Of a stretch of 64,000 nucleotides of DNA, positions 1-64,000 are shown one piece after another; within the stretch, counting starts at the first letter, position 1, and each line of letters begins with the position of its first letter. Source of the DNA: a virus; the IMG/VR virus record IMGVR_UViG_3300033417_000002, positions 1-64,000 of that record; one strand, written 5' to 3'. The translations under genes and the position numbers were made by a program. The notes under the pieces are model-generated. The model ran no database searches. It saw nothing but the letters and a program-made list of their open reading frames with translations, and was not told where the DNA came from.

Positions 1-45
1 AGGTTTCGTTTTGAATTCCATCTGTTTCACCTTTGTACCTCCAGG

Positions 46-684
46 TTACCGTACCGGCGTCGCCACCGGCGTTTGCGGATTCCACGTTTCCGGGTCCAGG
101 GTCGGCGCGGCCGTCACGCGGGCCGCGTTTTGTGTAGCCAGTACGACGATGTCTACTGTTGGGGTGGGTGGGCCTTCGCTCGGATTCAGCACCGTCCACG
201 TCGGTGTAGCATCTGCCCCCAACGTCGGCCAGACACCCGTTACCGTAGGCACGGCCGTCTCGTTCCCTGGAACGGCCGTGGGTGACTCATGCACCGGCGT
301 TTCATCCTGAACATACAGTGGGGTGGGGGTAGCGTCCGGATCCGGAGGTTCTGGCGTCTCGTCCAGGCCGTCCTTGTACAGAGCGAACCCGCGCTGTGCG
401 ATACCGACCATGGTATTCGTGAAACGAACCATCTCGTCCTCAGATTCAACCATCAGATCGGTCGTGCTTCTGAGCAGCGCCACCGGATAGGCCGGAATCG
501 CGATCAAAAGTGCCCCCAAAACAGTCGCAACATAAGCCAGGGTCGGTACTCTGTCTGAATTATTCCGGGCCTGCAGTCCGGACCGGGCGCCCAGAAACAA
601 CAGGAACAGACCAACTCCGACGATGGCCGCGGCGATTAGGAAAAATAATCCGTAGCCGCCCGCGTTAATAAGTTTTACGTCCAT
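46..684 (-). CDS. membrane protein with Pro/Thr-rich C-terminal region
   Basis: ORF 46..783 trimmed to ATG at 684 with GGAGG upstream; two hydrophobic helices (GYGLFFLIAAAIVGVGLFLLFL; LAYVATVLGALLIAIPAYPVALL), then TPEPPDPDATPTP-type low complexity. Confidence 0.55.
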   Translation of the reverse strand: MDVKLINAGGYGLFFLIAAAIVGVGLFLLFLGARSGLQARNNSDRVPTLAYVATVLGALLIAIPAYPVALLRSTTDLMVESEDEMVRFTNTMVGIAQRGFALYKDGLDETPEPPDPDATPTPLYVQDETPVHESPTAVPGNETAVPTVTGVWPTLGADATPTWTVLNPSEGPPTPTVDIVVLATQNAARVTAAPTLDPETWNPQTPVATPVR

Positions 685-698
685 AATCGCCTCCAAAC

Positions 699-959
699 TT
701 ATGACGGTCGTTCCGTGACGAACGGCCGTCTTTCCAAACTCCAGAAAACTCTCACGTTCGGCTCCGGGGCAACAAACCTGCAAGGATTGCCGCTATCATC
801 GAACATATAGCCACCACCGCGATCTATTAACTCGTAAACGACGGTCTGTATATCATCGCCGTGATAGACATCCACTGGCTCGCCAGCCTCAAGTGGCTCA
901 CCGTTGTGGTTGTCTTCTCTCCAATCAGGTCGAATATATAATTTGTTAGTAGCGCTCAT
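699..959 (-). CDS. hypothetical protein (86 aa)
   Basis: ORF with AAGGAG RBS just upstream of ATG 959; no recognisable motif. Confidence 0.5.
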   Translation of the reverse strand: MSATNKLYIRPDWREDNHNGEPLEAGEPVDVYHGDDIQTVVYELIDRGGGYMFDDSGNPCRFVAPEPNVRVFWSLERRPFVTERPS

Positions 960-975
960 TGAATCTCCTTCGCCT

Positions 976-1013
976 AAAAACCAAAAAGCCCTCCGAGCAT
1001 TGCACGGAGGGCT
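976..1013 (-). terminator. rho-independent terminator after the RHH gene
   Basis: Minus-strand hairpin AGCCCTCCG-N9-CGGAGGGCT (987-1013) followed by TTTTTGGTTTTT (976-986). Confidence 0.6.
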
Positions 1014-1114
1014 AAATACGCCTATTATTATGTTAGCTGGGCCGCTCCCGTGCGAGTCGGTCCAGTTAGATGGTGGGGTGGTGGTTGCAACACCGCCTCA
1101 CCATTGCCAGTTTG

Positions 1115-1342
1115 TTACAGAATTACTATAAGTCTGTCCTCTTTTCCCGATTCCCTGATCAATATCTCAGCGCCGCGAGTCTGAGCTTCCTTTACGAGTA
1201 ACCCCAGGCTAATGAATCGTCGCACCACGTCAACGACAGGACGACCCTCGGACTTGGCGATCTCTTCCAGGTCGTCAAATGTTTCCTGCGGCATCGTCAT
1301 ATTGAATCGTTTTGAATCGCTCACGCTCAATCCCTCATACAT
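1115..1342 (-). CDS. ribbon-helix-helix (CopG/Arc-like) DNA-binding protein
   Basis: C-terminal part of ORF 1115..1552; RFNMTMPQETFDDLEEIAKSEGRPVVDVVRRFISLGL fits the beta-strand plus two-helix RHH pattern; start uncertain (ATG 1342, GTG 1324 with GAGGGA RBS, or ATG 1300). Confidence 0.6.
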   Translation of the reverse strand: MYEGLSVSDSKRFNMTMPQETFDDLEEIAKSEGRPVVDVVRRFISLGLLVKEAQTRGAEILIRESGKEDRLIVIL

Positions 1343-1355
1343 CGAATATACAACT

Positions 1356-1420
1356 ATTATGCACATTCGCGGCGCATTGTCAATCGTTTGACCAAAATTG
1401 GTCGGCGATTGACAATGCGC
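1356..1420 (-). promoter_or_regulatory. sigma70-like promoter inside a nested 49-bp palindromic operator
   Basis: Minus-strand TTGACA (1378-1383), 16 nt, CATAAT (1356-1361); arms GCGCATTGTCAATCG (1372-1386) and CGATTGACAATGCGC (1406-1420) with inner GACCAA-AA-TTGGTC (1390-1403). Confidence 0.55.
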
Positions 1421-1606
1421 CATGGTGGGCGGTCGGGGCTGCGCCGTCGCTATACGGCCGTCTACTTGTTCGTATAGCAGTGCAGGGTGAAACGCCAGAA
1501 CGCCGGCAAACGGCCGTTCCTGCGGGTATCCAGAAACGAGCGCCTGTGGCACGGCCGTTCTAATAGCGGGTTATTTCCGTCAAATTACCGGGGTGGGGGG
1601 ATAGGC

Positions 1607-1640
1607 AGAAAAAGGCCGCCCGCAAGGGTGGGGGCGGCCT
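1607..1640 (-). terminator. rho-independent terminator downstream of integrase
   Basis: Minus-strand hairpin AGGCCGCCC-N10-GGGCGGCCT (1613-1640) followed by a short U run (1607-1612). Confidence 0.5.
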
Positions 1641-1853: not shown

Positions 1854-2789
1854 TCAGGAGTTCAGCCTGGAAAGATGCCTCAGCATGTCGTCTTCATCGG
1901 TGATCGGAGCGTAGAAGGCCCTGGTCGTCCCGATGTCCTTGTGGTTAAGGAACTGCTGGATCACATGAAGCGGCATGTCCTGGCGCAGCATCATGATCGC
2001 CCGGTAATGCCGGATGTCATGCGGCGTCAAACGCTCGTCCAATCCCGTGGCCGCCATTGCGTTCTTGATGGCCAGGTGCAGGGATGTGTCGCTGAGCCGC
2101 TTGCCGCTTGAGTTGCGCGAATGAGACACAAACAAAGCCGAGCCGCGGTCGGTGCGTTCAGCCAGGTAAGCGAGGATGGCCGGGATTGCCCGGCTTTCAG
2201 GATAGCCAAAGCGCAGCGTATGCGGCCGGTTGCCCTTGCCGGTCACCACGGCCGTTTTCGTGTCATGGCTAATGTGCGACCTATCCAGCCGCCGGGCCTC
2301 GCCAATGCGGCAGGCCGTTTCGTAGAGCGTCCAGAAGATGGCAATATTACGTAAAGCTGACAGACGCACGTTGTAATCGCCCCTTCTTTCGTCTGGGATC
2401 GGGTAATTCTCTAAGTATTCGACCAAGCGCGGCATCTCCCGCTTGCGCAGGTCGTCAAGCTGGACGACGTTCATGTGCGAGTAGGATCGCGGCCCGTTGC
2501 GGACCTCGTAGCGGACACGGGTCATATTCACGGCCGTCCCCTCTCCCATCACGTCCATGAATTCCAGGAACCCGGCAATGCCGGCCATGTAGGTGCTGAC
2601 AGTCGGCGGCGTGGTGGTGTCCACCAGGTAGCTGTGGAATCCGATCACCCCCTCGGTGGTAAGCGGCTCTACCCCCTCCCCTTCCGCCCAGGCCAGCCAT
2701 GAGGTAACGGCCGTGCGATAAGTGGATGCGGTTTTTTTGCTTTTTTTTGACTTCGCCTTTAGGAACGCCTCGATATGAGATTTCAACAT
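1854..2789 (-). CDS. int: tyrosine recombinase / phage integrase
   Basis: 311 aa; N-terminal SAM-like core-binding region; C-terminal catalytic signature ACRIGEARRL ... HDIRHYRAIMML ... LNHKDIGTTRAFY (R, HxxR, Y). Confidence 0.9.
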   Translation of the reverse strand: MLKSHIEAFLKAKSKKSKKTASTYRTAVTSWLAWAEGEGVEPLTTEGVIGFHSYLVDTTTPPTVSTYMAGIAGFLEFMDVMGEGTAVNMTRVRYEVRNGPRSYSHMNVVQLDDLRKREMPRLVEYLENYPIPDERRGDYNVRLSALRNIAIFWTLYETACRIGEARRLDRSHISHDTKTAVVTGKGNRPHTLRFGYPESRAIPAILAYLAERTDRGSALFVSHSRNSSGKRLSDTSLHLAIKNAMAATGLDERLTPHDIRHYRAIMMLRQDMPLHVIQQFLNHKDIGTTRAFYAPITDEDDMLRHLSRLNS

Positions 2790-2978
2790 TTGACCATACT
2801 CCTTTCACGGCCGTCTGAGAAACGGCCGTTTTTGACCATAGTTAAGATAATAACAGAATCAACGACCGTTGACCAGAGCGACATAGCGGGGTAAATACAC
2901 CGATTAACGGCCGTACGGCAGCGAAAAGGCCCAGCGGAGGGGAGCCGCCGGGCCTTTTCTGGGAACGGGAGGGGCAAA

Positions 2979-23484: not shown

Positions 23485-23636
23485 GCCTGCCTCGCTTGCG
23501 TCTGGCAACGTTCCTGAAATCGCTTAAAGCGCATGAGTTCCAGTTTGTGGCCAGATTCGCCGGCGGGCCTATGCAGAACCAGCACAAACCCTATCGCGCC
23601 TAGAATCTGATTGATTCGCTTCAAAGAAACTATCAT
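23481..23636 (-). CDS. small hypothetical protein (51 aa)
   Basis: Hand-translated MIVSLKRINQILGAIGFVLVLHRPAGESGHKLELMRFKRFQERCQTQARQA; ATGA overlaps at both ends link it to its neighbours. Confidence 0.35.
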   Translation of the reverse strand: MIVSLKRINQILGAIGFVLVLHRPAGESGHKLELMRFKRFQERCQTQARQA

Positions 23637-24202
23637 GCCGTCAACAATTCCTTCGCCCGCGCTCGAATCGCCGCCCGCTCTGCTTCGTCCGTCGCCTGGT
23701 CACCCAGGGCAATCAACTCTTGCAGAGTGGCGGCGTTTTCGACGCGCCAGGCAAACAGGGGTGGGTCTGCAACGGCCGTCTCCGGTTCGTCTACCAGGGC
23801 GGTTAGCGCAGAGAACTCCGTCTTCGCTTCCGCTGTTTGTACGCGAAGACTTTCTTCACCAAAGGTGAGGGTAACGGCCGTTTCTGACTCGCTTCCGGTC
23901 GCAACGGCCGTCTCCACCGTATCAGTGCACAGCTCCTCAGAAACGACCGTCGCCGGTTCGCTGGCAGGCTCTGCGGCAACGACGGCTGTCTCCGGACCCT
24001 CCGGCGGCGATTCAACGGCCGCTTCTGTATCAAATTCCTCAGAAACGGCCGTGCCTTTCGCAGCTTCAGCCGCTGCCGCCAGATGAGCCTCAACGTCGCC
24101 CTTCGTGATACGGCCGTCAGCGCCGGTCCCGGTCACGCCGACCAGGTCAATGCCGTGCTCGGCCGCTAGTTTGGCGGCCGCGTCGGTGGCATTGGCAGCC
24201 AT
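23633..24202 (-). CDS. acidic protein with N-terminal E3-binding (PSBD)-like domain
   Basis: 189 aa; AAKLAAEHGIDLVGVTGTGADGRITKGDVEAHL, then an acidic Glu/Thr/Ala-rich region. Confidence 0.55.
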   Translation of the reverse strand: MAANATDAAAKLAAEHGIDLVGVTGTGADGRITKGDVEAHLAAAAEAAKGTAVSEEFDTEAAVESPPEGPETAVVAAEPASEPATVVSEELCTDTVETAVATGSESETAVTLTFGEESLRVQTAEAKTEFSALTALVDEPETAVADPPLFAWRVENAATLQELIALGDQATDEAERAAIRARAKELLTA

Positions 24203-25194
24203 TACGTGATCATCTCCACAGCCACGCCGCTCAGGTCAGCGCCGGTTACGGCATTCATGTTGCCGTAGATGAGGCCGGTGTCGCCATCATCCCATTTCGG
24301 CGCGCCGATCAGCATGCAGTCTTTCAACAGGATGCGCTTGTTGGCTGCGTCAAAGCCGCCGGCGACGGCCATAGCAGCCGTCATCGCCTGGCTGGCCAGA
24401 TTGATAAACAGGCAGCCGTCAAATATCTGGTAGCGGTCTAGGCCGCTGTTGCCCAGCAGTTCGACGAAGATGGCCCCGGCCGCCCCGGCCTGCATCGTGA
24501 AATGGCAGCGCCGGAAAACGTTGCGGGCTGCGCCGCCTGTGGCCGCAAAGACCAGTCCTGCCATGCCGGCCGCGGCGTTGGCGGTATCAACGCCGATGGT
24601 GCAGTCTTCAAATAGATTCTCTGATCCGCCGTTGATGAGCAGGCTGGCCCCGCCGTTGATGGCCTGGGTCGCGTGGCCGCCGCCGGCGAAGTGGACGTTT
24701 TTGAAGTGATTGCGGCTGCCGGTAACACTGGTGTTCACCAGCGAGGTGGCGTCGTCTACACCCTGGAAAATATAGATATTTTCAAAGATGCACCCGCTGG
24801 CCGAAACGGTCAACAGCGGTGACGCGCCGGTCAGGGTGGAAAGCTGGAAAATACGCGCTCGCTGGCCAACCATTGTCGGCGCGACAATACCGACCAGGTG
24901 AGTGTAGTTCTTGTTCCAGTCCAATGCCGCGCTCAGGGTAATGCCGCTGCTGCCGGCCACGTACATGATCGTATCGTGCTGGTTGGCGGTGCAGGCGGCG
25001 AAGGCCGCCGCCAGGGTCGCAAATGGGTAGTTAGGATCTTGGCCGTCATTGTCGTCGTCGGCGCTGGTGTGGGAGGGATTCAGGTAGAAGACTTTACCGG
25101 CCGTGTTCGTGAACTTGGGGTAAATCTTCGTCCCGGCGATTCCCAGGATGCCATTGTCACCGGCAACGTAGCCAATGGGCAATAAACCGTTCAT
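24202..25194 (-). CDS. right-handed parallel beta-helix (pectin-lyase-fold-like) protein
   Basis: 330 aa; periodic F(E/K/R/D)(N/D/R/G)(I/V/C)xF coils (FENIYIF, FKNVHFA, FEDCTIG, FRRCHFT, FDGCLFI, LKDCMLI); N-terminal DGQDPNYPFATLAAAF cap motif. Confidence 0.55.
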   Translation of the reverse strand: MNGLLPIGYVAGDNGILGIAGTKIYPKFTNTAGKVFYLNPSHTSADDDNDGQDPNYPFATLAAAFAACTANQHDTIMYVAGSSGITLSAALDWNKNYTHLVGIVAPTMVGQRARIFQLSTLTGASPLLTVSASGCIFENIYIFQGVDDATSLVNTSVTGSRNHFKNVHFAGGGHATQAINGGASLLINGGSENLFEDCTIGVDTANAAAGMAGLVFAATGGAARNVFRRCHFTMQAGAAGAIFVELLGNSGLDRYQIFDGCLFINLASQAMTAAMAVAGGFDAANKRILLKDCMLIGAPKWDDGDTGLIYGNMNAVTGADLSGVAVEMIT

Positions 25195-25195
25195 G

Positions 25196-25453
25196 TTACA
25201 CTGCCTCCCTTTCCCATCCGGGATTTGCGGCTACCACCGTAGCGGGGGTGTTGTAAGCGGCCAGGAACGCCTGCGCCCGCTCCAACATTTCGTAGGGCCA
25301 GACCTGCGGGTTTTCTTTACGCTCTTTGATGATGGCGTTGGCTTTCTCAACGCTCATGTCCGGGTAGCCGGCTTGCAGCAAACCTTCCATAGCCTTTGTC
25401 TTGGGCTTGACGGGTTTGATGTGCTCGGTATTTACGGCTGCTTTTTTCGCCAT
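25196..25453 (-). CDS. hypothetical protein (85 aa)
   Basis: ORF between the capsid and beta-helix genes. Confidence 0.5.
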   Translation of the reverse strand: MAKKAAVNTEHIKPVKPKTKAMEGLLQAGYPDMSVEKANAIIKERKENPQVWPYEMLERAQAFLAAYNTPATVVAANPGWEREAV

Positions 25454-25523
25454 GTCTTATCTCCTCGGCAACAAATTAACGCCCAGTTGGGCAAACTCTG
25501 GTTAATTCGCCGCCAGAAACGCT

Positions 25524-26612
25524 CTAGGGCGTGGTGCCCGAAGAGTAGTAAATGCCTCGATAATCCGTGACGCCCACATAGGTGCTGTCATCCCAGCCGC
25601 CCACGATGTCTTCCACGAAGTATTCGATGTCGCCGGTCTCGGCCGAACCCATCAAAAAGGCGCTGGGGGCGCTGCCGGTGATCATCTCGATGTTGCTGGC
25701 CTTCATGTAAGTGAAGGGACCAGGGACGCCGCGCAGCCGGGCCACACTGATGGTCGGCATTTCGGCCGGGTCAGCGACCAGATACCAGGGCACGTCCGGG
25801 CTGGAAGTGGCGATGTACGGGTCAACGTCCACCTGGGCCACCCAATTCTTTAATATGTTGGAGTCTGGCCCGCCGTAGCTGATGATGTCATCCAGCACCG
25901 AGGCCGCCTGGATTTTCAGAATGCTCGGGATGACCAGATGCACCCGGCGGATGTCGATCCGGTTGCCGTCAGCATCGGTACGCTGCATCATGGCGTTCAG
26001 CCCTACAGCCAGGTTAGCCGCCGTTAAACGGCCGGTGCCGGCATAGAGCGCACCCAGGGCGACCAGGGCCGCCTGGGTCGTGGCGTTGTCGTACAGGTCG
26101 CTGACAAACTGGTCTTCAAACCGGTTGGCGGCATTCGCCATCCGGCTCGGCGTCTCGCTGATTTTGCCCAGGTCGTCGTTGAGGATTGTTCGCCAGCTTA
26201 CGTCGAACTGCCGGGAGAATTCCTCGACGCCGTACTGCACCCGTGTCGCTGTGATTTTCGTGGCTTTCGCTTCGGCTTTTTCCCGGCGCTTGTACAGCGT
26301 GCCCGGCTCACTCATCCGATGCCGTTCAACGTCTCTGAAGTCGGGAGCCTCGTCAGCAAACGTGTAATTTTGCCAGTCGCCGATCTGGTACTGGTAATCG
26401 TTGCGAAACGCCCGGTCCAGAGCCGTACCGAAGTAATCGGTAAAGTGAGCAGTCGTCATCGTTTCGACGAATTGCCGGCTGTTCATGCCCCGCCAGTTGC
26501 GTTGTAATTCGCGCAGCGCCTGGACACGCCGGTCCAGTTCTGCGCCTTCAATGAGGTCGCTGTCCTGTTCGGACAAAGCCATTTCCTCGATCCACCTAAT
26601 TACGGTATACAT
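25524..26612 (-). CDS. major capsid protein (Mu gpT/HK97-like, by pattern and position)
   Basis: 362 aa; size, position after protease/scaffold, and general similarity to Mu-type major head subunits (from memory). Confidence 0.6.
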   Translation of the reverse strand: MYTVIRWIEEMALSEQDSDLIEGAELDRRVQALRELQRNWRGMNSRQFVETMTTAHFTDYFGTALDRAFRNDYQYQIGDWQNYTFADEAPDFRDVERHRMSEPGTLYKRREKAEAKATKITATRVQYGVEEFSRQFDVSWRTILNDDLGKISETPSRMANAANRFEDQFVSDLYDNATTQAALVALGALYAGTGRLTAANLAVGLNAMMQRTDADGNRIDIRRVHLVIPSILKIQAASVLDDIISYGGPDSNILKNWVAQVDVDPYIATSSPDVPWYLVADPAEMPTISVARLRGVPGPFTYMKASNIEMITGSAPSAFLMGSAETGDIEYFVEDIVGGWDDSTYVGVTDYRGIYYSSGTTP

Positions 26613-26644
26613 AGTTCAATGTCTCCTTGTATGCCTTTCCAGGC

Positions 26645-31421: not shown

Positions 31422-31652
31422 TTAATCTCCGGGCGTCTCATACGGGTATAGTTCCACGTCCTGCACTTCGGCCCACTCGCCGGCCGCAAAGGCGCACAAA
31501 ATATTATCGTATTTGTCATAGACAATCAGGCAGCCGCCGTCAACGAAAACCCGGGCACTGCGCGGAATGGAAGCAAATGAGTTGCGGTCATAAGGCCGCG
31601 AGACCATGTAACAGCCGTTTTCATCGTTCACTATCAATCTCCAGGCGGGCAC
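31422..31652 (-). CDS. hypothetical protein (76 aa)
   Basis: ORF abutting the MuF-like gene start. Confidence 0.45.
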   Translation of the reverse strand: MPAWRLIVNDENGCYMVSRPYDRNSFASIPRSARVFVDGGCLIVYDKYDNILCAFAAGEWAEVQDVELYPYETPGD

Positions 31653-31899
31653 TACCGGACGCGTCCATTTTCATAAATCTATACCGGCCAGGACTGTCGG
31701 CTGACACCGTAGCAATCACAAGACGACATTCCCGGCAGATGATGTCGCCCCAAACCCGGTCACCATTCAGGTCGTCAGATTGCAAATCCTCGATAATGAC
31801 CGCTCTAGATTCACCGCAACCTTCACAGTAAAAGCGAACATCTACCGGAGCCTCGATGGTGATGGTGAAAGTGGTGTAACGGCCGTCTTCTTCGTTCAT
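31621..31899 (-). CDS. zinc-ribbon protein (92 aa)
   Basis: CEGCGES ... CRECR paired CxxC motifs. Confidence 0.5.
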   Translation of the reverse strand: MNEEDGRYTTFTITIEAPVDVRFYCEGCGESRAVIIEDLQSDDLNGDRVWGDIICRECRLVIATVSADSPGRYRFMKMDASGSARLEIDSER

Positions 31900-46404: not shown

Positions 46405-48108
46405 TTACTGAAACGTCTCTGCAACCCTGCCCAGAATCTGCCGCATGGCAATCGGTGTGACTGCGTTGCCGTATTGCTTGACCTGCTCCCGCTTGTTGCC
46501 CAATACAACGTAGGTGCCGGGGAACGCCATGCCCTTGCCGATTTCCGGCGGCTGCAACATGCGAAAGTAACAGTCTTCCACGCTGATTTCGGCCGTTGGC
46601 TGAATCAACCCGTGCCCATTCTCGGTGTGGATGGTCAGCAGTGGATCGGTTACATTGTGCGCCGGGCCTTCCCCATTGGCGTAGCCGATGAAGAAGGGCA
46701 TGACCACGCCGTGCCGGTCAACGGCCGTTAACGTGCCCATTGCCTCATCTACGCCCCGGTTGTTTTCCGTGCCGTAATAGCTCATGAGGAAGGGCGCGGG
46801 CAGCAGCAGGCCGTGATGGTTGCCGTTAGCAGCCACGGTTGACATGGCCTCATCTACGCCTTTGGGGGTGTTAGTTCCGCGCAGTTCTACCATGAAAGGG
46901 GCCATGGTTAAGCCAAACTTGTTTTGAGTGGTCTGGGTTCCCATCGGGTCACCAACCTGGATGTTACGGTCGTCGTAATCGTTGATTGATGTCAGAAACG
47001 CATTAGGCATCACCAGCGCATGGCTTTGCCGCGCCGTCTGCGTGGCCAGTGAGTCAGACACGGCCGTTGCTCCGCCGCCATGCAGGGTATTGATGAGATA
47101 AGGCATCATGAGGCCGTGATGTGCTCCACTGGTCGCTATAGTGCTCATTGCCTCGCTAAGTTGGCGGGCGTCCTGACCGTTGCGAAGCTCGATCATCAGG
47201 TATTGATTCCCGAACTTTTCCAGCCCCTTCCTGATTCGATTGATGGTCTTTTCCTTCAACGGCCGTTTCCGGTCGCCTATCCGCTCCGCCGGCAGTGACC
47301 AGTCAATCGCATTGGCCGCCGCAAAATGGTAGGGCATGACCTCATTGGCGCACGTCGGGCAGCAGTAAATGTACTGGTCGCCATAGCGCCCCCAGCGCCC
47401 GCCTGTTTTCCGAACGGCCGGTGTCTGCTTCCAACCCTGTACCGCCTCTACATCACGGCAGCAGGTGGAGCATGGCGCCAATGGTCTAAAGTCCAGATTC
47501 GGCCGCTTGTTAACCTTCTTCCAGAAGACGACGTACATCCGATCCCGGCTTTGTGGGGCGAAGTCGTGCGTGGTGCGAACGGTGCGCGGGTCAAGGTGGG
47601 CGAATTGGCTATTGAGGTAAACAATATGATAGTCGTAACCCAACTTATCCATCGCTAATATCCAGGCATCCCACATAATCCAATGCCGGGCATCGACCAC
47701 GTTCTCGGCCACAATCACGTTGTAATCGTGATATTCGGCGAATCGTGGTACATCCCACATCGTCGCCCGGCTTCTTTCGGCCGATGGATCGATGACTTCT
47801 TTTTCCCACAGGTGAAGCTGCTTGCGGCGGCGGGCGGCTCCCTTGGCCACTGAATGATTCGTACATTCTGGCGAAGTCACCAATATGTCAGTGCTTGCAT
47901 ACCGTCGCGGGTCGGTGGCGCTTACGTCGGCGCAGTCGTGGTGCGTGTTGGGGAAATTGGTGTTGTGGGTATCTATGGCAAGCTGCCAATGATTCAGCGC
48001 CAGATACACATCCATGCCAACGTATTCCGCGCCCAGGCTGCTGCCCCCTGCCCCGCAGAATTGATCGGTGACGGTTAAGTACGATTTCTTTTTAGGCATC
48101 TTCGACAC
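46405..48108 (-). CDS. DNA (cytosine-5) methyltransferase with six tandem TRD-like repeats
   Basis: 567 aa; motif I DQFCGAGGSSLG, IV TSPECTNHS, VI AENV, VIII QSRDR, IX-X FRML..PE ... QYGNAVTP; Cys4 insert; residues 303-504 form six 32-35 aa repeats ending ..T(I/V/L)xx...H(G/A)(L/V)xxP. Confidence 0.85.
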   Translation of the reverse strand: MSKMPKKKSYLTVTDQFCGAGGSSLGAEYVGMDVYLALNHWQLAIDTHNTNFPNTHHDCADVSATDPRRYASTDILVTSPECTNHSVAKGAARRRKQLHLWEKEVIDPSAERSRATMWDVPRFAEYHDYNVIVAENVVDARHWIMWDAWILAMDKLGYDYHIVYLNSQFAHLDPRTVRTTHDFAPQSRDRMYVVFWKKVNKRPNLDFRPLAPCSTCCRDVEAVQGWKQTPAVRKTGGRWGRYGDQYIYCCPTCANEVMPYHFAAANAIDWSLPAERIGDRKRPLKEKTINRIRKGLEKFGNQYLMIELRNGQDARQLSEAMSTIATSGAHHGLMMPYLINTLHGGGATAVSDSLATQTARQSHALVMPNAFLTSINDYDDRNIQVGDPMGTQTTQNKFGLTMAPFMVELRGTNTPKGVDEAMSTVAANGNHHGLLLPAPFLMSYYGTENNRGVDEAMGTLTAVDRHGVVMPFFIGYANGEGPAHNVTDPLLTIHTENGHGLIQPTAEISVEDCYFRMLQPPEIGKGMAFPGTYVVLGNKREQVKQYGNAVTPIAMRQILGRVAETFQ

Positions 48109-50881: not shown

Positions 50882-50928
50882 ACGGCCGTTCCCTACGCTG
50901 TCCAGGCCCCGGGAACGGCCGTTTTTTA
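50882..50928 (+). terminator. plus-oriented intrinsic-terminator-like hairpin built from two ACGGCCGT copies
   Basis: ACGGCCGTTCCC (50882-50893) pairs with GGGAACGGCCGT (50911-50922), followed by TTTTTT on the plus strand; lies between two minus-strand genes. Confidence 0.35.
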
Positions 50929-51180: not shown

Positions 51181-51226
51181 CTCTATACTCCTTTGGCCCT
51201 TACCACTGCCCGGGAACGGCCGTTTT

Positions 51227-54653: not shown

Positions 54654-54864
54654 TTTCGCTCTCCTGTAACGCGGCGAGGTAGACGCCGTAAAGCGACTCG
54701 CCGGTTGTGGCTTGCTGCCGGTCGGCCATGTGGGTGACGGCCGTTTCCAGCAGGTACTCGGATATTTCATAGTCCTGGCAGCCGAGGCCGCCGTGAAAGG
54801 TGTAAACGGTGTCGTGGGCGTAGATGCGGCATTCGCCGCCGATTAGGACGTGGAGTTCGATCAT
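54640..54864 (-). CDS. hypothetical protein (74 aa)
   Basis: ORF, ATGA overlap with the methyltransferase gene. Confidence 0.45.
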   Translation of the reverse strand: MIELHVLIGGECRIYAHDTVYTFHGGLGCQDYEISEYLLETAVTHMADRQQATTGESLYGVYLAALQESENDSY

Positions 54865-56183
54865 TGGTCATTTCCTAAAAATAGCGGCAAGTCATCATAA
54901 ATCCGGTTGTCTACGATGCCGCTAAAATCTTGCTTCAAGCAGTTGGGGCTGAACCAGATACGTTCACGGTTGGCGTTATCGTTACTGCCATCCGCTCGTT
55001 GGTTCCCGTAGCCGCCATTGGCTTTCCAGACCACCACATCCCAACCAAGCGATTCCAGTTCGTTGTGTTCACCATCCAGCCCGCATAGGGCGATGCGTAG
55101 TTTGGGGTGTGTGTAGCGCGGGCCTTTGAAATAATTCTTCTTTCCCGGCTTGCCATATGTGATCTCTTCTATGCACCACTCCCGAACCTCATCAGCAACG
55201 GTCAAACTATCTACGGAATACAAATTCGCTTGCCGGGTGTCACCATAAGGCGGGTCAAGGAAAACGGCCGTATCCCCTATGAGAAAGGTCACGCTTGGCC
55301 CCATGATGCGCTTCCAATCGCCACATACCACACGGGTACGGCGCAAGCGGGCCTGCAGCGCTTCCATGTAGTCATAGATGCCGCCGGTCTTACGATTGAA
55401 AGCGGTGGCGTGAATGCCCGCGCCGGATGCGCCGCTGTCACCGGATAGGTAAGGAAATTGGCGGCTGACGCCGCGATTTCCTTTCATGTTTGGTATTTTC
55501 TGCGGCAATCCCTCGATACCCTGATTGGGCCGTAGATTGGGACGTGTACGGCCGTTGCGGGTCATGGACTGCCGTCCGACGCCTGTGCCGCCCTTGAGGG
55601 TGAGCGGCCGCTTCTTGTGGATTGACGGCCGGTGAACACCCACGCCGCCATTATGCTGAAGAAACGGCCGTTTATTGGCCACGTTGTCGGCATTGACACC
55701 TTTGCCTCTCTTTAGTTCCTGGCGTCTCCGTTCTGGCGTACCATCTAGACGGATCCCGCTTCGTCTGTCAACTCGCTCGGTAGCACACCACCCGCTGCCA
55801 ATCCACGCACTCAGTCCCCACACCCACCACCCGGCTATTTTGGCGTCGTAGTATTCTGGATCGACCATCATTTTTTCACGGAACTCAGCCTGGTTGACCA
55901 GCCACAAATGACGTGCGTGCAAGTCCGCCTCCATAACGGGATAATCAGCCCAATACGCAACCGCTTCCGGATCCGCCACCGTTGCCCGCCAAAAATTTGA
56001 CAAATACGTGTCCGCGTCGTTGACTGTCTCCGTGCGCACCGGGAACGGCCGTGCCAACAAAACGGCCAGGCTGCCGGCAAACGGTTCGACGTAATTGAGA
56101 ACGTCGCCAAAACGTGGCCAGACGATGTGCGCCACACGGCTCTTACCGCCGTGCCACGGGAAAGGGGCCTTGAGTAAAGCCAC
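54861..56183 (-). CDS. DNA N6-adenine methyltransferase (Dam/D12 class) with a large Arg/Gly-rich insertion
   Basis: 440 aa; PFPWHGGKSR, YVEPFAGSLAVLL, VFLDPPYGD; basic G-x-G-V-x-R-rich segment of about 120 aa between motif I and DPPY. Confidence 0.8.
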   Translation of the reverse strand: MALLKAPFPWHGGKSRVAHIVWPRFGDVLNYVEPFAGSLAVLLARPFPVRTETVNDADTYLSNFWRATVADPEAVAYWADYPVMEADLHARHLWLVNQAEFREKMMVDPEYYDAKIAGWWVWGLSAWIGSGWCATERVDRRSGIRLDGTPERRRQELKRGKGVNADNVANKRPFLQHNGGVGVHRPSIHKKRPLTLKGGTGVGRQSMTRNGRTRPNLRPNQGIEGLPQKIPNMKGNRGVSRQFPYLSGDSGASGAGIHATAFNRKTGGIYDYMEALQARLRRTRVVCGDWKRIMGPSVTFLIGDTAVFLDPPYGDTRQANLYSVDSLTVADEVREWCIEEITYGKPGKKNYFKGPRYTHPKLRIALCGLDGEHNELESLGWDVVVWKANGGYGNQRADGSNDNANRERIWFSPNCLKQDFSGIVDNRIYDDLPLFLGNDQ

Positions 56184-59099: not shown

Positions 59100-60185
59100 T
59101 TAAGCGTATTCTTCCAACGAAAGCGCCGGAATCCGCGTTTCGCGCTCGTCTGCCAACCAGGCCTCTAGATCGCCACCGGTCTCCTCGGTAGTATGCAACA
59201 GCAGCCATTCATAATGCTCGTCCTGATCTTCCTGAGACAGGGTGGCTACCTGCTTTGGTGTCAGCATGGGAAGATTTTCCATCTTTGTTAAATAATCGAA
59301 GTATTGTTTTTGGCCCCGTCCCTTACCTTCCGAGTTATGATGGCATAGGTTGTGATCCCGTAATTCATTCAGCAACCCGTAACACCCAGGGTACTTCTTA
59401 CCACCCCTGGTCGTTGTTGGTGGACGGCCGACCATTTTAGACAAGTCGCCCCTTCCCAATTTATTTACAAGTGTCTTGAGTGATGGCCCCTCCTTGTCTA
59501 GCTTCTCGAACTCATAAGCATAGGATGAAATTATCAGGAGTAAATCAAACAAGTCAGCACCCAGATACGGCCGCCAGAAACGGATGGCATAGTGCGTGGT
59601 TGCTACAAAACCATTGAGTGGATCGGTTGGCTTTCTGATTTTCCGGTAACGTATACGGCCGTCCCCATTGCTATCTTTACGGCCGTTCCCCTTTCCCGAC
59701 CCATTTACCCCCGCCTCGTTCCTCTCCTCCCGTTCTTTAATCCCCGCTAGCATCTCCGCCCGCTGCTCCGGCGTCAGATTCCCCCCATAGCCATCCTCCT
59801 GCACCGCCCACGGCCGTTCCTGCGGCGGCTCTTCTGGTGGCTCAGGGATGGCGGTACGGCCGTTCCCGTTTTCGCGCCCACCGTCCCTGCCGTTTTCAGA
59901 CATTGCCTGCCGCGCCTCAAACTCATCCAGCATCCCAATTTCAACGGTGCACGGCCGTCCGGCAATGGCGCTCAGCGTCCCCTCAATCGTCGGCTTCAGT
60001 CGCAGATTGAGCCAGTCACGGCCGTGCGGGTTGTCCACGCCAATTGAAAAGGTATCTTCATGCACCCCAATAAACCGTGATCCCTTTAACCACTGATAAA
60101 ATGTCTGCCTGGTCATCTGCAGCTCAAGCTCACCCAGTGTCGCTTTCCAAACCGCTTCCGGTGATTGTTTGACTTCGATGTTCAT
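59100..60185 (-). CDS. replication organiser/initiator-like protein with DnaA domain-I-like N-terminus
   Basis: 361 aa; N-terminal AVWKATLGELELQMTRQTFYQWLKGSRFIGVHEDTFSIGVDNPHGRDWLNLRL parallels DnaA_N; Gly/Asn/Arg-rich linker; helical C-terminal domain. Confidence 0.5.
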   Translation of the reverse strand: MNIEVKQSPEAVWKATLGELELQMTRQTFYQWLKGSRFIGVHEDTFSIGVDNPHGRDWLNLRLKPTIEGTLSAIAGRPCTVEIGMLDEFEARQAMSENGRDGGRENGNGRTAIPEPPEEPPQERPWAVQEDGYGGNLTPEQRAEMLAGIKEREERNEAGVNGSGKGNGRKDSNGDGRIRYRKIRKPTDPLNGFVATTHYAIRFWRPYLGADLFDLLLIISSYAYEFEKLDKEGPSLKTLVNKLGRGDLSKMVGRPPTTTRGGKKYPGCYGLLNELRDHNLCHHNSEGKGRGQKQYFDYLTKMENLPMLTPKQVATLSQEDQDEHYEWLLLHTTEETGGDLEAWLADERETRIPALSLEEYA

Positions 60186-60410: not shown

Positions 60411-60448
60411 CGAAAGCAAAACGGCCGCAAGCTAGAGCTTACGGCCGT
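60411..60448 (-). terminator. rho-independent terminator formed by an ACGGCCGT pair
   Basis: Minus-strand ACGGCCGTAAGC-TCTA-GCTTGCGGCCGT (12 bp, one G-U) followed by TTTGCTTTC. Confidence 0.5.
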
Positions 60449-62160: not shown

Positions 62161-62174
62161 TCCTCCTGGGGTAC
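61900..62174. repeat. 275-bp direct repeat, copy 1
   Basis: About 95% identical to 62381..62654 (about 14 mostly transition differences by eye). Confidence 0.85.
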
Positions 62175-62354
62175 GGCCGTTTTCCTGCGAGCTTTCCATA
62201 ACTCATCAGCCACCTCCACCTCGTGTTCGGATAAGAGTCCCACCAGATCAACCGCACAGCGCAGGTTTTCTGCGATTTCAATATCGTTGAGGCGCTCGCG
62301 CGCGGCTTTCCAGTGCTTCAGAATATCGATCAGTTCGTTTGCGTCTATCATCAC
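62157..62354 (-). CDS. hypothetical protein (65 aa)
   Basis: Unique ORF between the two repeat copies. Confidence 0.5.
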   Translation of the reverse strand: MMIDANELIDILKHWKAARERLNDIEIAENLRCAVDLVGLLSEHEVEVADELWKARRKTAVPQEE

Positions 62355-62641
62355 ACCTCCTCAGAAGCGGCCATTGCCCGCTGCAACCTATCAATCTCAG
62401 CCGCAATCAACGCCCCGGCAACCACAAGTTGGCGCACGCGGTCGTGCTTTGATTTTTTATTCCACTTCGGTTCCCATGGCCAAAATGCCAACACCTCCCC
62501 GTATTTTTCAGGAAGAGCGTAAAAAGCGGCGGCGCCGGCAAGCTCTTCTCTTGTCCATTGGTCGTCATGTTCAGATGTCCATTTCTCGGCGTCAATTTGG
62601 CGCTGCCTTTCGTTGGTTATCAGTTCTATTCCGGTCATCAT
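62351..62641 (-). CDS. conserved phage protein (ERxRQ...EHDD family), short paralog
   Basis: 96 aa, more than 90% identical to the first 90 aa of 61756..62160. Confidence 0.55.
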   Translation of the reverse strand: MMTGIELITNERQRQIDAEKWTSEHDDQWTREELAGAAAFYALPEKYGEVLAFWPWEPKWNKKSKHDRVRQLVVAGALIAAEIDRLQRAMAASEEV

Positions 62642-62654
62642 TCCTCCTGGGGTA
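62381..62654. repeat. 275-bp direct repeat, copy 2
   Basis: See copy 1. Confidence 0.85.
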
Positions 62655-62847
62655 TTGCTAGGGCATCAATCGCATCGCTCAATGTTACGCTCATGAAAAA
62701 ATCTTCATCGTACCATTGAACCGGTATAGACATTGACGGCGGTCGTCTTTCCCTGCACAATTCGCCAATGATCCGTGTGCATTTTTGAAGCCGTTCAGTT
62801 AACGGGGCGCTGTCTCTTACTAATTGCTCTAGTTTCTCATTAGTCAT
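62638..62847 (-). CDS. hypothetical protein (69 aa)
   Basis: ORF 62638..63066 trimmed to ATG 62847 (MTNEKLEQL...). Confidence 0.45.
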   Translation of the reverse strand: MTNEKLEQLVRDSAPLTERLQKCTRIIGELCRERRPPSMSIPVQWYDEDFFMSVTLSDAIDALAIPQEE

Positions 62848-63127
62848 TCCACACTCCTTGTTTGGTTGTATCCAAACATCCCCACGTCTCGCCTTGATGC
62901 TTCCATCCGAGCACGTAGGGCCAAACGGCCGTATCCGGGTCACTAACCAAGCCGTCAAATTCCGGCGCTCGTTTGGCGCGAAAGTACGTGAATTTGATGA
63001 CAAAGTCCGCATCGTTGGCTGCACGCCATTGCTGGGCCTTTGCTCCGCCATGACTTTCGGCCGCAACGATAGCCTTCATATCATCCCATCCTTTTGCCGC
63101 TATCGAAACCTCATATGCTCTCATCAC
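62840..63127 (-). CDS. hypothetical protein (95 aa)
   Basis: ORF. Confidence 0.5.
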   Translation of the reverse strand: MMRAYEVSIAAKGWDDMKAIVAAESHGGAKAQQWRAANDADFVIKFTYFRAKRAPEFDGLVSDPDTAVWPYVLGWKHQGETWGCLDTTKQGVWND

Positions 63128-63498
63128 GACTCACCTTCCTTCACGGCCGTCATTGCTTCTAGCAATACATCTCCCGGATACTCGCCGCACCAGGAACATC
63201 TGCCATCACTGTCCAGTCCGACGCCCCACATGTTGCAACTACTACAGGGGGCGGGGGCGTCCACTATATGCGGCTCGTTGTTGGCCAACTTTTCCTGATT
63301 GGCCAGTGGCAGCACGTTGCTCTCGTTACGTATCCACTTCACATACAAATCGATCCACTCGCTCGAAATATCCCAACCGCACTGCCGCCAAGCGCGCAGT
63401 TTTGCGCCCTTGGCGCTAAAATCAAATACTAGCGCAGCGCCCTCTCCCGACCCGGCCGCATGAGAATATGCCATATATGGCCTCAATCTCTTCATCAC
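63124..63498 (-). CDS. hypothetical protein with C-terminal Cys4 motif (124 aa)
   Basis: CSSCNMW ... CSWCGE. Confidence 0.5.
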   Translation of the reverse strand: MMKRLRPYMAYSHAAGSGEGAALVFDFSAKGAKLRAWRQCGWDISSEWIDLYVKWIRNESNVLPLANQEKLANNEPHIVDAPAPCSSCNMWGVGLDSDGRCSWCGEYPGDVLLEAMTAVKEGES

Positions 63499-63848
63499 GC
63501 CTCCTCGGATACGGCCGTGCCACCTTCCGCTTTGGCAATGGCGGCACGGCCGTTGTTAATGGCATTGTCTTCGTCCTCGTAGTTACCGACTCCCACGTTG
63601 AAAGCTTCAACCATATGCAGTAATGCCCCCAATAAATCGGCGTAGCTTTCCATGTTTCGCCTTGCTTCGGTGAGGGCCTCTTTTGTCTCGAGATAATCTG
63701 AGGCAAGTATGAATGCCTCAGTCTGGCCAATTGATACACTCGGGCCATTCATTCGCCCGAGTGCATCGTTTATTTTGTCTGTAAGCGCGAGCACATCCTC
63801 TGGGTGCTCAACAGCCACGCGGCGCCAGCGATCATTGAATTCAGTCAT
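63495..63848 (-). CDS. hypothetical protein (117 aa)
   Basis: ORF 63495..63863 trimmed to ATG 63848 (MTEFNDRW...). Confidence 0.5.
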   Translation of the reverse strand: MTEFNDRWRRVAVEHPEDVLALTDKINDALGRMNGPSVSIGQTEAFILASDYLETKEALTEARRNMESYADLLGALLHMVEAFNVGVGNYEDEDNAINNGRAAIAKAEGGTAVSEEA

Positions 63849-63999
63849 CGTCACTCCACCCACCTTCTCCTGTTTGCAGGTCTTCAGCCAGGCTGGAAAC
63901 CGCCAAAAGCTCGCTCCCCCCGTAGTAGGTCACGGCCGTTCTTCCGCCCAACATTTCCTCTGTTACGACCCATACTTCCTCCTCCTCGTCCCAATGCAT
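63841..63999 (-). CDS. small acidic hypothetical protein (52 aa, may extend beyond the window)
   Basis: Hand-translated MHWDEEEEVWVVTEEMLGGRTAVTYYGGSELLAVSSLAEDLQTGEGGWSDDD; ATGA-type overlap with the next gene. Confidence 0.3.
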   Translation of the reverse strand: MHWDEEEEVWVVTEEMLGGRTAVTYYGGSELLAVSSLAEDLQTGEGGWSDDD

Positions 64000-64000
64000 T

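Follow-up and report, generated by a model that had tools for sequence, protein, structure and literature searches.

The palindromic octamer ACGGCCGT saturates a phage genome and, at a similar density, host genes from a lineage of Chloroflexota. Our preferred explanation, to which we give a probability of roughly 55%, is that ACGGCCGT is the hyper-iterated palindrome (HIP) of this lineage and that the same directional process acts on the phage in its host, most likely a ratchet of methylation and repair. ACGGCCGT would then be another, independent instance of the "HIP1" phenomenon, which is unexplained and, to our knowledge, was known until now solely from cyanobacteria.

The DNA that we analyzed (the window) is 64,000 nucleotides long and covers 64% of a genome that is complete, circular, and 100,246 bp long. 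The phage is a siphovirus of about 100 kb, circular and temperate. (A tyrosine integrase points to the temperate lifestyle, that is, a long stay inside the host.)

Abundance and reading frames of the palindrome

A full census found 131 exact copies of ACGGCCGT in 64 kb, or 2.05 per kb. This agrees with a first-pass annotation of the window, which had counted about 130 copies by eye and whose nine example positions were all right. Dinucleotide shuffling gives 1.69 ± 1.27 copies (maximum 5), and Markov models predict 1.74 (first order) or 8.9 (third order); the enrichment over chance is about 75-fold. ACGGCCGT ranks first among octamers, including against the third-order model, both by count for a palindrome and by (O-E)/sqrt(E), and the remaining top octamers are without exception overlapping shifts of it. 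Variants that differ only at position 1 or 8 are also frequent, as had been noticed (22, 39, and 27 copies; O/E of 4-7), and CGGCCG has just one of its two A/T flanks at 88 more sites. The spacing of copies is Poisson-like (mean 490, median 362, CV 1.05), with a largest gap of 3136 bp (24110-27246), and the extended consensus is weak (GGnA-ACGGCCGT-TnCC).

One candidate explanation is that ACGGCCGT forms the central part of a mobile repeat, such as a REP- or MITE-like element, that has dispersed through the genome. A few copies do lie within longer hairpins, and a 21-bp unit (GGGAACGGCCGTTTTTTATTG) is found twice. However, conservation is confined to the 8-mer (flanking positions carry at most 0.18 bit each), and most copies are in frame within genes, without indels relative to orthologs. 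We consider a mobile repeat highly improbable, and the analysis of spacing and flanks rejects it as a general explanation.

Another candidate is a by-product of composition, whether from the use of Thr-Ala-Val, codon bias, or a skew in GC-rich oligonucleotides. The codons ACG, GCC, GGC, and CCG are common here (40-54% of their codon families). But there are 93 copies within 58 coding sequences, as compared to 13.5 ± 3.3 (maximum 25) if codons are shuffled synonymously so that the proteins are kept, or 2.5 ± 1.6 if codon order is shuffled so that codon usage is kept. The first-pass annotation had named a codon-aware null as a possible refutation of its claim; the enrichment survives both shuffles. 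Non-coding DNA is as dense in copies as coding DNA, and control phages of the same GC content have none. The codon-aware shuffles reject this explanation, and we see almost no chance that it is correct.

Within genes, the motif occupies all three frames. The frame ACG-GCC-GTn (Thr-Ala-Val, or TAV) was thought to hold most of these copies; it is indeed the commonest but does not have a majority (the frames account for 48, 36, and 18 of the 102 copies in minus-strand ORFs). The proteome is distorted by the motif. TAV tripeptides are 6-fold over-represented (48 observed versus 8 expected) and xGR tripeptides 3.3-fold, and the motif encodes 43 of the 48 TAV and 35 of the 41 [NHDY]GR tripeptides. 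CGT is only 14% of arginine codons, yet it is used in 35 of the 41 xGR sites. ACGGCCGT is a true DNA-level hyper-iterated palindrome, similar to a HIP, and codon and amino acid usage are not sufficient to explain it. Among genes, the early ones have the highest density and the most constrained ones the lowest, with no copies in the capsid gene (Table 1).

Close pairs of copies had been proposed to form intergenic hairpins. Three of these do look like terminators (Table 1), and the one at 50882 resembles a bidirectional terminator. The pair at 60421 had been given as two exact copies, but its first member is a variant. Close pairs are not enriched, with 14 intervals of at most 50 bp versus about 12.6 expected (Poisson). 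The hairpins are a by-product of the motif's density together with its self-complementarity.

Table 1. Features of the window and their copies of ACGGCCGT
Position	Strand	Feature	Details
1..64000	.	Dispersed field of 131 exact ACGGCCGT copies	Census
1854..2789	-	Tyrosine integrase, 3 copies	PF00589, E = 3.5e-27
2807..2829	+	Two copies 15 bp apart, 8-bp stem then TTTTT	Between M23 peptidase and integrase genes
8139-10175; 51714-52724		Other long genes without the motif	
23633..24202	-	189-aa protein with E3-binding domain, 5 copies encoding 5 TAV tripeptides	
24202..26612	-	Major capsid gene (25524-26612) and neighbor (24202-25194), both motif-free	Inside largest gap
31513..31653	.	Circular-assembly junction	ENA contig k141_4379186 has a terminal overlap of 141 bp, which falls here
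46405..48108	-	C5-cytosine DNA methyltransferase, 567 aa, 3 copies	PF00145, E = 1e-20
50882..50922	+	Two copies in 12-bp stem ACGGCCGTTCCC...GGGAACGGCCGT, A-run/T-run flanks	About -30 kcal/mol
54861..56183	-	D12-class N6-adenine-type methyltransferase (second phage methyltransferase), 440 aa, 4 copies	PF02086, E = 4e-9; DPPY-type motif
59100..60185	-	Early gene for a DnaA_N-domain protein; the densest gene, with 6 copies (5.5 per kb)	
60421..60448	-	Terminator-like coding-strand hairpin: exact copy at 60441, variant GCGGCCGT at 60421; 12-bp stem, T-rich tail	Top-ranked terminator-like site

The same palindrome in Chloroflexota

We scanned the contigs of 185,579 species genomes for three close copies of ACGGCCGT. 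This identified 44 saturated loci, with 12-28 copies per 8 kb (about 0.2 expected) and a GC content of 50-61%. They are exclusively from Chloroflexota and are labeled as Ardenticatenaceae, Promineifilaceae, Ca. Leptovillus, Anaerolineae, or just Chloroflexota. (High-GC actinomycetes also matched, with 3-6 copies only.) The saturated loci have about 2.2 copies per kb, or roughly 100 times expectation, although choosing loci by three close copies biases this density upwards, and it is about 1.8 per kb once the triggering triplets are removed. Among palindromic octamers in the host sample, ACGGCCGT has 725 copies and the next best has 24. We take the lineage to be Ardenticatenales plus Promineifilales, which is the class Ardenticatenia in NCBI and lies within Anaerolineae in GTDB. 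The genes in these loci are for MurJ, a class-A penicillin-binding protein (PBP), glycosyltransferases, and similar housekeeping proteins. Gene content of this kind speaks against the loci being prophage DNA.

Other mobile elements of this lineage are saturated as well, at 1.7-3.5 copies per kb. At the nucleotide level, some of them (L144/L145 and L146) have nothing but the methyltransferase gene in common with the window, and five IMG/VR contigs have no similarity to it. From the shared signature, and from homologs of the methyltransferase in Chloroflexi MAGs, we infer that the likely hosts are Ardenticatenia.

The fine structure of the motif is also shared between phage and host. In both, one-off variants are enriched at positions 1 and 8 only, the weak flanks GGnA/TnCC are present, and the three frames rank in the same order. 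The O/E profiles of hexamer palindromes are correlated (r = 0.81). Phages were said to avoid restriction-type palindromes, and this is true here of nearly all the other hexamer palindromes (GGGCCC, 0 observed versus 36 expected; GAGCTC, 0 versus 12; CGATCG, 2 versus 24), which makes the enrichment of this single site more striking. The host has the same avoidance profile.

Motif sites are preferentially conserved in the host. Across four pairs of orthologs (87-93% identity), 108 of 112 sites (96%) are intact, whereas octamers matched for GC are intact in 51% of cases (P = 4e-26). The phage alignments retain 4 of 11 sites, versus 6%. In our preferred reading, the sites are actively maintained.

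Could the motif be an adaptation of the phage itself, with its own C5 methyltransferase targeting the site, or with copies serving in packaging or replication or as anti-defense decoys? The phage does encode the C5 methyltransferase that the first-pass annotation described, as well as an N6-adenine methyltransferase, and its early genes are the densest. However, host chromosomes have the same density and fine structure, and the motif is carried by several further mobile elements from this group of hosts. The C5 methyltransferase belongs to a large family of phage enzymes (520-610 aa) from several phyla, and its matches in the PDB are generic C5 methyltransferases only. Phages on Caldilineaceae and Nitrospiraceae contigs have homologs that are 51-53% identical, with the same GC content, and each has 0 copies of ACGGCCGT in 21.6 kb. 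So the motif follows the host rather than the methylase of the phage, and the earlier idea that it is a phage property tied to this enzyme is not supported. The host census largely refutes a phage-specific adaptation, and we consider it very unlikely. Most simply, the enzyme is a general anti-restriction methyltransferase and not the cause of the motif.

The methyltransferase gene shows directional gain of the motif. Where two outgroups encode Lys-Pro, the ingroup has Arg-Pro, encoded as A CGG CCG T. In L146, the conserved block YMV[DE]LR became FTAVLR by four nucleotide changes (MVE to TAV). Polarized by the outgroups, the motif gains are derived and replace conserved residues.

Known iterated sequences and a candidate mechanism

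HIP1 (GCGATCGC) of cyanobacteria had been suggested as the nearest analog, and the DNA-level behavior of ACGGCCGT bears this out. Both are GC-rich palindromic octamers, and each is the most abundant octamer of its genome, with a density of about one per kb or higher, which exceeds expectation tens- to a hundred-fold. Both occur as single dispersed copies, without indels, in all coding frames and in non-coding DNA, and their sites are kept across related genomes to a degree that codon effects do not explain. In both, the inner 6-mer and 4-mer are classic methyltransferase targets (CGGCCG/GGCC here, CGATCG/GATC in HIP1), and one-off variants gather at the first and last base, a pattern that was reported for HIP1 by Elhai 2015 (PMC4390886) and explained there by a ratchet. 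As for differences, GCGATCGC has 0 copies in the window, where CGATCG is avoided; ACGGCCGT belongs to another phylum, is about twice as dense as is typical for HIP1, and has been recorded from a whole phage genome as well as from further mobile elements. Also, its outer bases are A/T instead of G/C, which puts it outside Elhai's G-meC rule in its published form. Some cyanobacteria have alternate HIPs (GGGATCCC, TCGATCGA, and CAGGCCTG), which are lineage-restricted replacement octamers on a methylase core (Elhai 2015, Xu 2018, and a 2026 preprint by Rodriguez-Cruz); CAGGCCTG also embeds GGCC. These are sporadic and moderately enriched, whereas ACGGCCGT has HIP1-like strength in two or more orders of a different phylum.

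A lineage-specific, sequence-directed process, with biased repair linked to methylation, is probably responsible. Along the lines of Elhai's HIP1 model, a methyltransferase resident in the cell would mark the CGGCCG/GGCC core, and repair guided by methylation or sequence would settle near-miss mismatches towards the complete octamer, the A/T flanks coming last. (These flanks are not predicted by Elhai's specific G-meC version.) Such a ratchet would make and protect sites until the DNA is saturated, at the expense of codon choice and even of conserved amino acids. It would act on any DNA that replicates in these cells, and the phage would carry the host's density because its DNA is replicated and repaired there.

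Very-short-patch repair in E. coli (Dcm/Vsr) is a plausible template for the mechanism: biased T:G repair leaves the methylase target over-represented (CCWGG in excess, CTWGG in deficit). That effect is under 2-fold and depletes the deamination product, while ACGGCCGT is 8 bp long and enriched 75-100-fold. The depletion of C-to-T variants that a simple model of the Dcm/Vsr type predicts is not seen in host (O/E of 0.9-1.2) or phage (1.2-4.5). Among 50 phage ORFs scanned, we did not find a Vsr-type gene, and we did not see a methyltransferase or nicking enzyme in 328 kb of sampled host DNA.

Alternatively, ACGGCCGT could be a selected host signal: a "self" tag for DNA uptake or recombination, a mark that tells the two strands apart during mismatch repair, or a site for a protein of nucleoid or chromosome architecture. 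The phage would then keep copies for efficient recombination or repair, for self status, or for exchange with resident prophages. The strong conservation between host orthologs favors this, as do the overridden amino acids, the nearly complete filling of synonymous opportunities, and the use of some copies in terminator hairpins, as with DUS. (Selection for function would predict preferential conservation and proteome distortion equally well.) For HIP1, selection was argued by Xu et al. 2018 (PMC5861425). Also, a 2024 preprint reports that HIP1 raises natural transformation, depending on homology and methylation (10.1101/2024.09.10.611283), and a 2026 preprint ties HIP1 to the machinery of horizontal gene transfer. 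The uptake sequences of Neisseria (DUS) and Pasteurellaceae (USS) resemble ACGGCCGT in being lineage-specific, at about 1 per kb, conserved across orthologs, and sometimes paired in terminators. They distort peptide composition, and they spread through molecular drive instead of site-specific function. But they are asymmetric 9-12-mers that are bound by competence proteins, while ACGGCCGT is a perfect 8-bp palindrome for which we identified no binding or uptake protein. We regard a selected signal as plausible but less probable than the ratchet. A repair or architecture signal with optimized spacing would favor even intervals, and those in the phage are Poisson-like; the low density in the most constrained genes, down to zero in the capsid gene, is as for passive accrual under constraint.

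Abundance and coding context of the octamer

We searched the window for exact copies of ACGGCCGT, an 8-bp palindrome with a CGGCCG core and A/T outer bases. There are 131 copies in the 64,000 bp (2.05/kb), and the example positions listed in the first-pass annotation are all correct. Dinucleotide-preserving shuffles of the window contain 1.69 +/- 1.27 copies, with a maximum of 5. Similarly, a first-order Markov model predicts 1.74 copies (O/E 75) and a third-order model predicts 8.9 (O/E 15). (Orders 5-6, with expectations of 64-104, were left out as nulls because their sub-words are themselves parts of ACGGCCGT.) By (O-E)/sqrt(E), ACGGCCGT is the most over-represented octamer in the window, and those that rank behind it are all 1- or 2-base shifts of it; it is also the top palindromic octamer by count. 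Conservation is limited to the 8 bases. The flanks of the window copies carry at most 0.12-0.18 bit per position, with a weak symmetric preference for GGnA-ACGGCCGT-TnCC.

Nearly all of the genes in the window are on the minus strand. Among the 102 copies in minus-strand ORFs, 48 are read as ACG-GCC-GTn (Thr-Ala-Val), 36 as nAC-GGC-CGT (x-Gly-Arg), and 18 as nnA-CGG-CCG-Tnn (Arg-Pro). Thr-Ala-Val, which had been described as the reading of most copies, is the commonest frame but a plurality rather than a majority. The first-pass annotation had also stated that its reading would fail if Thr-Ala-Val usage and codon bias alone predicted the count. They do not: the 58 confident coding sequences hold 93 copies, versus 13.5 +/- 3.3 (maximum 25) if synonymous codons are shuffled with the protein kept, and 2.5 if the order of codons is shuffled. 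The proteins themselves are distorted. In these 58 sequences, Thr-Ala-Val occurs 48 times, where composition predicts 8, and the motif encodes 43 of these (codon usage predicts 19%). Similarly, [NHDY]GR tripeptides occur 41 times (12 expected) and 35 are encoded by the motif, even though CGT is a rare arginine codon (14%). Given the codon-aware nulls and the inflated peptides, the enrichment of ACGGCCGT is a DNA-level signal that is stronger than codon choice and protein sequence.

The spacing of the copies within the 64 kb is Poisson-like (mean 490 bp, CV 1.05, largest gap 3.1 kb). The first-pass annotation had noted hairpins formed by close pairs. There are 14 intervals of 50 bp or less, versus about 12.6 expected at the window's density, which rules out an extra enrichment of close pairs; the hairpins are a consequence of density and self-complementarity and add no signal. 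Three of the intergenic hairpins (2807-2829, 50882-50922, and 60421-60448) do look like terminators. Also, a 21-bp direct repeat, GGGAACGGCCGTTTTTTATTG, which combines the motif with a T-run, flanks a small ORF at 50926-51180. Its copies are at about 50905-50932 and 51211-51238, and the first is the 3' arm of a 12-bp terminator-like hairpin.

Density varies along the window, from 1.56/kb in the structural module (the lowest) to 2.36/kb in the early region and 2.83/kb in the left arm. No copies occur in the major capsid gene or in three more long genes (24202-26612, 8139-10175, 51714-52724). This echoes HIP1, the octamer of cyanobacteria, whose density is negatively correlated with expression (PMC5861425).

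The probable host lineage and its mobile elements

To find the octamer elsewhere, we scanned 185,579 species, one genome apiece, for three close-set copies of ACGGCCGT and counted the octamer in each matching 8-kb locus. (By our estimate, about 2 chance matches to the triple-copy pattern are expected at 50% GC, and more in GC-rich DNA.) The number of copies per locus is bimodal. High-GC actinomycetes and assorted other organisms have no more than the 3-6 copies behind the match, and we consider the actinomycete loci to be chance or tandem-repeat matches in 70% GC DNA. In the other 44 loci (50-61% GC), a full 8 kb contains 12-28 copies, versus about 0.2 expected, and all 44 are from Chloroflexota. 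They are labeled as Ardenticatenaceae (including several HK-STAS-CHLO MAGs), Candidatus Promineifilaceae, Ca. Leptovillus affinis, or MAGs named Anaerolineae, Chloroflexota, or Chloroflexia. Ardenticatenaceae and Promineifilaceae both belong to the class Ardenticatenia in NCBI, and one of the matching Ardenticatenaceae contigs is 4.27 Mb long (JACKBQ010000001.1). Ardenticatenales and Promineifilales are filamentous bacteria that are abundant in activated sludge.

Together, the 44 loci have 725 copies in 328 kb, versus 7 expected (2.2/kb, O/E about 100); this density is biased upwards by how the loci were chosen, and is about 1.8/kb once the triggering triplets are removed. The next palindromic octamer has 24 copies. 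The loci are ordinary chromosome, with genes for MurJ (6 copies), a class-A penicillin-binding protein (7 copies), glycosyltransferases (6 and 13 copies), a Ser/Thr kinase, a nucleotidyl-transferase, and a beta-eliminating lyase. Density is alike within long ORFs (2.13/kb) and outside of them (2.42/kb), and the frames split 58/28/14%, with the same ranking as in the phage. Two loci from Ardenticatenaceae MAG HK-STAS-CHLO-32 (L014 and L015; JACKBX010000003.1, 120-136 kb) contain motif-rich internal repeats of about 330-430 bp with 82-87% identity. These repeats include several of the triple-copy matches and keep the motif in 30 of 46 occurrences; they may encode a repetitive protein or make up a tandem array with partial conservation of the motif.

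The phage and the host loci also share fine structure. One-base variants of ACGGCCGT are enriched at positions 1 and 8 only, where O/E is 4.3-7.2 for the phage and 1.2-4.5 for the host; changes at any of the six inner bases are at about chance levels or below in both. The two also have the same weak flank preference. Across the 64 hexamer palindromes, O/E in the phage and in the host are correlated (r = 0.81). CGGCCG is the sole strong excess (6.3x in the phage, 5.6x in the host), mostly due to the full octamer, and most of the others are strongly avoided in both. This avoidance suggests a heavy restriction-modification load in the lineage, mirrored by counter-selection in the phage.

Examples of hexamer palindromes avoided by both phage and host, as observed/expected counts in the window and in the host loci (L005-L121, Chloroflexota subset)
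Hexamer	Phage	Host
GGGCCC	0/36	3/195
GAGCTC	0/12	0/48
ACTAGT	0/4.4	2/20
GCATGC	2/33	22/211
CGATCG	2/24	17/79
GTGCAC	2/20	9/114

The first-pass annotation linked the motif to the phage's own C5 cytosine methyltransferase. The phage does encode this enzyme, but the link is not supported. The enzyme belongs to a large family found in phage-like contigs from several phyla. Homologs with 51-53% identity are in phage contexts (near DUF5131, portal, terminase, and integrase genes) on two contigs, binned as Caldilineaceae (58.4% GC) and Nitrospiraceae (56.8% GC). ACGGCCGT is absent from 21.6 kb of each, and the Caldilineaceae contig has only 2 CGGCCG. In contrast, there are 1.7-3.5 copies/kb in the other mobile elements that have the closest homologs (65-69%), and in five IMG/VR contigs that came from the scan; at the nucleotide level, the most that any of them has in common with the window is the methylase gene. 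The motif tracks the host lineage rather than the phage methyltransferase, which is not its determinant. (In a search of PDB sequences, this protein matched generic C5 enzymes only, and only over the N-terminal catalytic motifs, which do not point to a specificity.) We found no match to either phage methyltransferase in the 44 host loci (tblastn), and no host methyltransferase in the host sample (328 kb). The ratio of half-flanked to full sites is 0.49-0.77 in the phage and most of the related mobile elements (0.67 in the window), versus 0.23 in chromosomes. This fits with mobile elements being less equilibrated than chromosomes.

Site conservation and candidate causes

We compared four pairs of orthologous host loci with 87-93% nucleotide identity, counting motif occurrences in both directions. 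The motif is intact in the partner in 108 of 112 cases, versus 51% for other octamers with six G/C (Fisher P = 4e-26, four host pairs). Preferential conservation of sites was shown earlier for HIP1 (Xu et al. 2018, PMC5861425), and the same now holds for ACGGCCGT. The phage alignments keep 4 of 11 sites, versus 6% of control octamers; this is a small sample from a few divergent blocks.

The methyltransferase gene shows how sites arise. We aligned the genes from the window and from two motif-bearing mobile elements, L144 and L146 (about 70% nucleotide identity), with two homologs from motif-free phages, L147 and L148. One site is common to the window, L144, and L146, and arose by a change from Lys-Pro to Arg-Pro (AAG CCG to CGG CCG). 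The other sites in this gene are lineage-specific. In L146, a block that reads Y/F-M-V-D/E-L-R in the four other sequences has become F-T-A-V-L-R: ATGGTnGA was converted to ACGGCCGT by four nucleotide changes that replaced three residues. The polarized sites imply that the motif is derived and is still being written into genes at the cost of conserved residues. Phage genes with motif-free relatives provide a natural experiment, in which the motif can be seen entering conserved positions in proteins.

In this lineage, chromosome and phage alike are subject to a strong, directional, sequence-specific force on their DNA. This force has filled nearly all synonymous opportunities, forced amino-acid changes, and protected existing sites, and it tolerates deviation only at the outermost bases. 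We believe that ACGGCCGT is best described as a HIP of the host lineage, common to that lineage's mobile elements (probability of roughly 90%). It has every property of the HIP class, in the sense of Elhai 2015 and Xu et al. 2018, that can be checked from sequence. First, in both the window and the host loci, it is the most abundant and over-represented GC-rich palindromic octamer. Second, HIPs occur about once per kb with O/E in the tens to hundreds, as with the 2.05/kb and 2.2/kb found here. Third, the copies are single and dispersed, in all frames and in non-coding DNA, lack conserved flanks and indels, and exceed what codon and amino-acid usage would give. Fourth, its one-nucleotide variants are biased towards the ends, the pattern described for HIP1 by Elhai 2015 (PMC4390886). 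Finally, sites are preferentially conserved between related genomes (108/112 in the host and 4/11 in the phage). Two other traits of the class, methylation of the site by a resident methyltransferase that recognizes the internal core and a quasi-periodic distribution over tens of kb, belong to methylomes and complete chromosomes rather than to a 64-kb sequence. HIP1, which had been suggested as the nearest analog, is indeed the closest, though it differs in sequence and phylum. HIP1 itself is not what we see: GCGATCGC, the HIP1 octamer, has 0 copies, CGATCG has 2 versus 24 expected, and the hosts are Chloroflexota, not cyanobacteria.

Other known repeats do not fit. The DUS and USS signals are asymmetric, 9-12 nt long, and read by the competence machinery, while this is a perfect palindrome of 8 bp whose flanks carry next to no information. 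REP and MITE elements have extended units of over 20 bp and are mostly intergenic; here conservation spans only 8 bp, and ORFs contain about 80% of the window copies. As a palindrome, the motif has no orientation, unlike Chi or KOPS-type octamers.

What is the force? Tentatively, and at somewhat less than even odds, we propose a methylation-linked biased repair ratchet, by analogy to what Elhai proposed for HIP1. A resident methylase would mark the inner core of the site, and the resolution of mismatches would favor strands that complete the octamer. The phage would be converted passively, being temperate and possibly plasmid-like (it encodes an integrase, ParA, and ParB). Several points weaken the ratchet. 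The A/T flanks are not predicted by Elhai's G-meC rule. C-to-T variants of the site are not depleted, with O/E at 0.9-1.2 for the host and 1.2-4.5 for the phage, contrary to a Dcm/Vsr-type prediction. The small host sample contained no methyltransferase. Nor do the 50 phage ORFs searched against Pfam include Vsr or another repair nuclease, just an HNH nuclease; the C-to-T counts and this search of the phage ORFs do not fit a Dcm/Vsr signature of very-short-patch repair. The variants with C-to-T at the inner cytosine of GGCC (ACGGTCGT/ACGACCGT) are in excess in the phage (9 versus 2.0 expected, 4.5x) and not in the host (6 versus 6.8). This may be the trace of a methylated inner cytosine that is deaminated in the absence of host-type repair, but the numbers are small.

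The main rival to a drive is selection for a function of the sites, such as a "self" tag for uptake or recombination, strand discrimination, or architecture. Functional selection accounts for the conservation and the distortion of the proteome as well as drive does, and recent work on HIP1 and transformation is in its favor. That the copies are spaced at random, and are depleted from the most constrained genes, mildly favors a drive that is limited by constraint. A further scenario, less likely than not, is that Ardenticatenia-group Chloroflexota independently evolved a complete HIP system. In this scenario, a dedicated methylase and/or a guided nicking, repair, or recombination activity would recognize ACGGCCGT and drive it on every replicon, and phages and plasmids would be converted to the host's "self" mark or have to mimic it. 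If so, this would be a second origin of HIPs, phylogenetically separate from the first, and the long-sought HIP machinery could be found by looking for gene families that are common to HIP-bearing cyanobacteria and Chloroflexota and absent from HIP-free relatives.

To our knowledge, HIP1 has been an unexplained curiosity of cyanobacteria for about 30 years. We found no HIP outside cyanobacteria in the retrievable HIP literature up to June 2026, and a preprint of that month that surveys all 256 palindromic octamers covers cyanobacteria only. Nor did we find a report of ACGGCCGT as a genomic or methylation motif in the retrievable literature, which excludes most subscription journals. Searches for CGGCCG in the Chloroflex literature, or for ACGGCCGT with palindrome or methylation, gave only primers and unrelated papers, and the HIP1 and cyanophage literature yielded nothing on the HIP content of phages. 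What we rate as new is a HIP whose sequence and phylum are both new, recorded along with its phages. A HIP with another sequence in another phylum, with the same fine structure, implies that the phenomenon is general. It also gives comparative genomics an independent replicate with which to look for the underlying machinery. And ACGGCCGT is a strong host-prediction marker for the phages and plasmids of Ardenticatenales and Promineifilales.

The phage genome

The window has the same sequence as part of ENA contig ERZ27256989:k141_4379186 (MEGAHIT; 100,387 bp). The last 141 bases of this contig are identical to its first 141, and the window crosses the junction (at 31513-31653), so the complete genome is a circle of 100,246 bp, and the window covers 64% of it. 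The overlap closes the circle and rules out a prophage with host flanks. The source is a temperate, siphovirus-like phage. Pfam and PHROGs identify a tyrosine integrase, M23 peptidase, tail proteins, tape-measure protein, major capsid protein, protease, portal, large terminase, ParB-like protein, DUF5131, and YopX in the window, as well as the genes in the table. Megablast of 20 kb of the window against GenBank phages gave no match, and we found no tRNA that might be the att site.

Selected genes in the window
Feature	Position	Strand	Remarks
Sensor histidine kinase, complete (HisKA + HATPase_c)	6092-7216	-	Between tail and lysis genes; unusual cargo
Small protein with E3-binding (peripheral subunit-binding) domain, PF02817	22255-22527	-	Head-tail module
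Small protein with E3-binding (peripheral subunit-binding) domain, PF02817	23633-24202	-	Head-tail module; 5 motif copies in 570 bp
C5 cytosine methyltransferase	46405-48108		Pfam/PHROGs
PHROG family annotated "DNA topoisomerase"	48724-49614	-	E = 4e-95; no Pfam match; two genes upstream of the C5 methyltransferase
D12-class N6-adenine methyltransferase	54861-56183		Pfam/PHROGs
HNH nuclease	58330-58896		Only nuclease seen in the repair-nuclease search

As temperate, siphovirus-like phages go, a circle of 100,246 bp is unusually large. The genes for ParA, ParB-like, FtsK-like, and SLT proteins could be features of a phage-plasmid or a conjugative element. The 8.1 kb that lies past the window's left end, with the FtsK-like, SLT, antirepressor, and ParA genes, has 35 more copies of the motif (4.3/kb).
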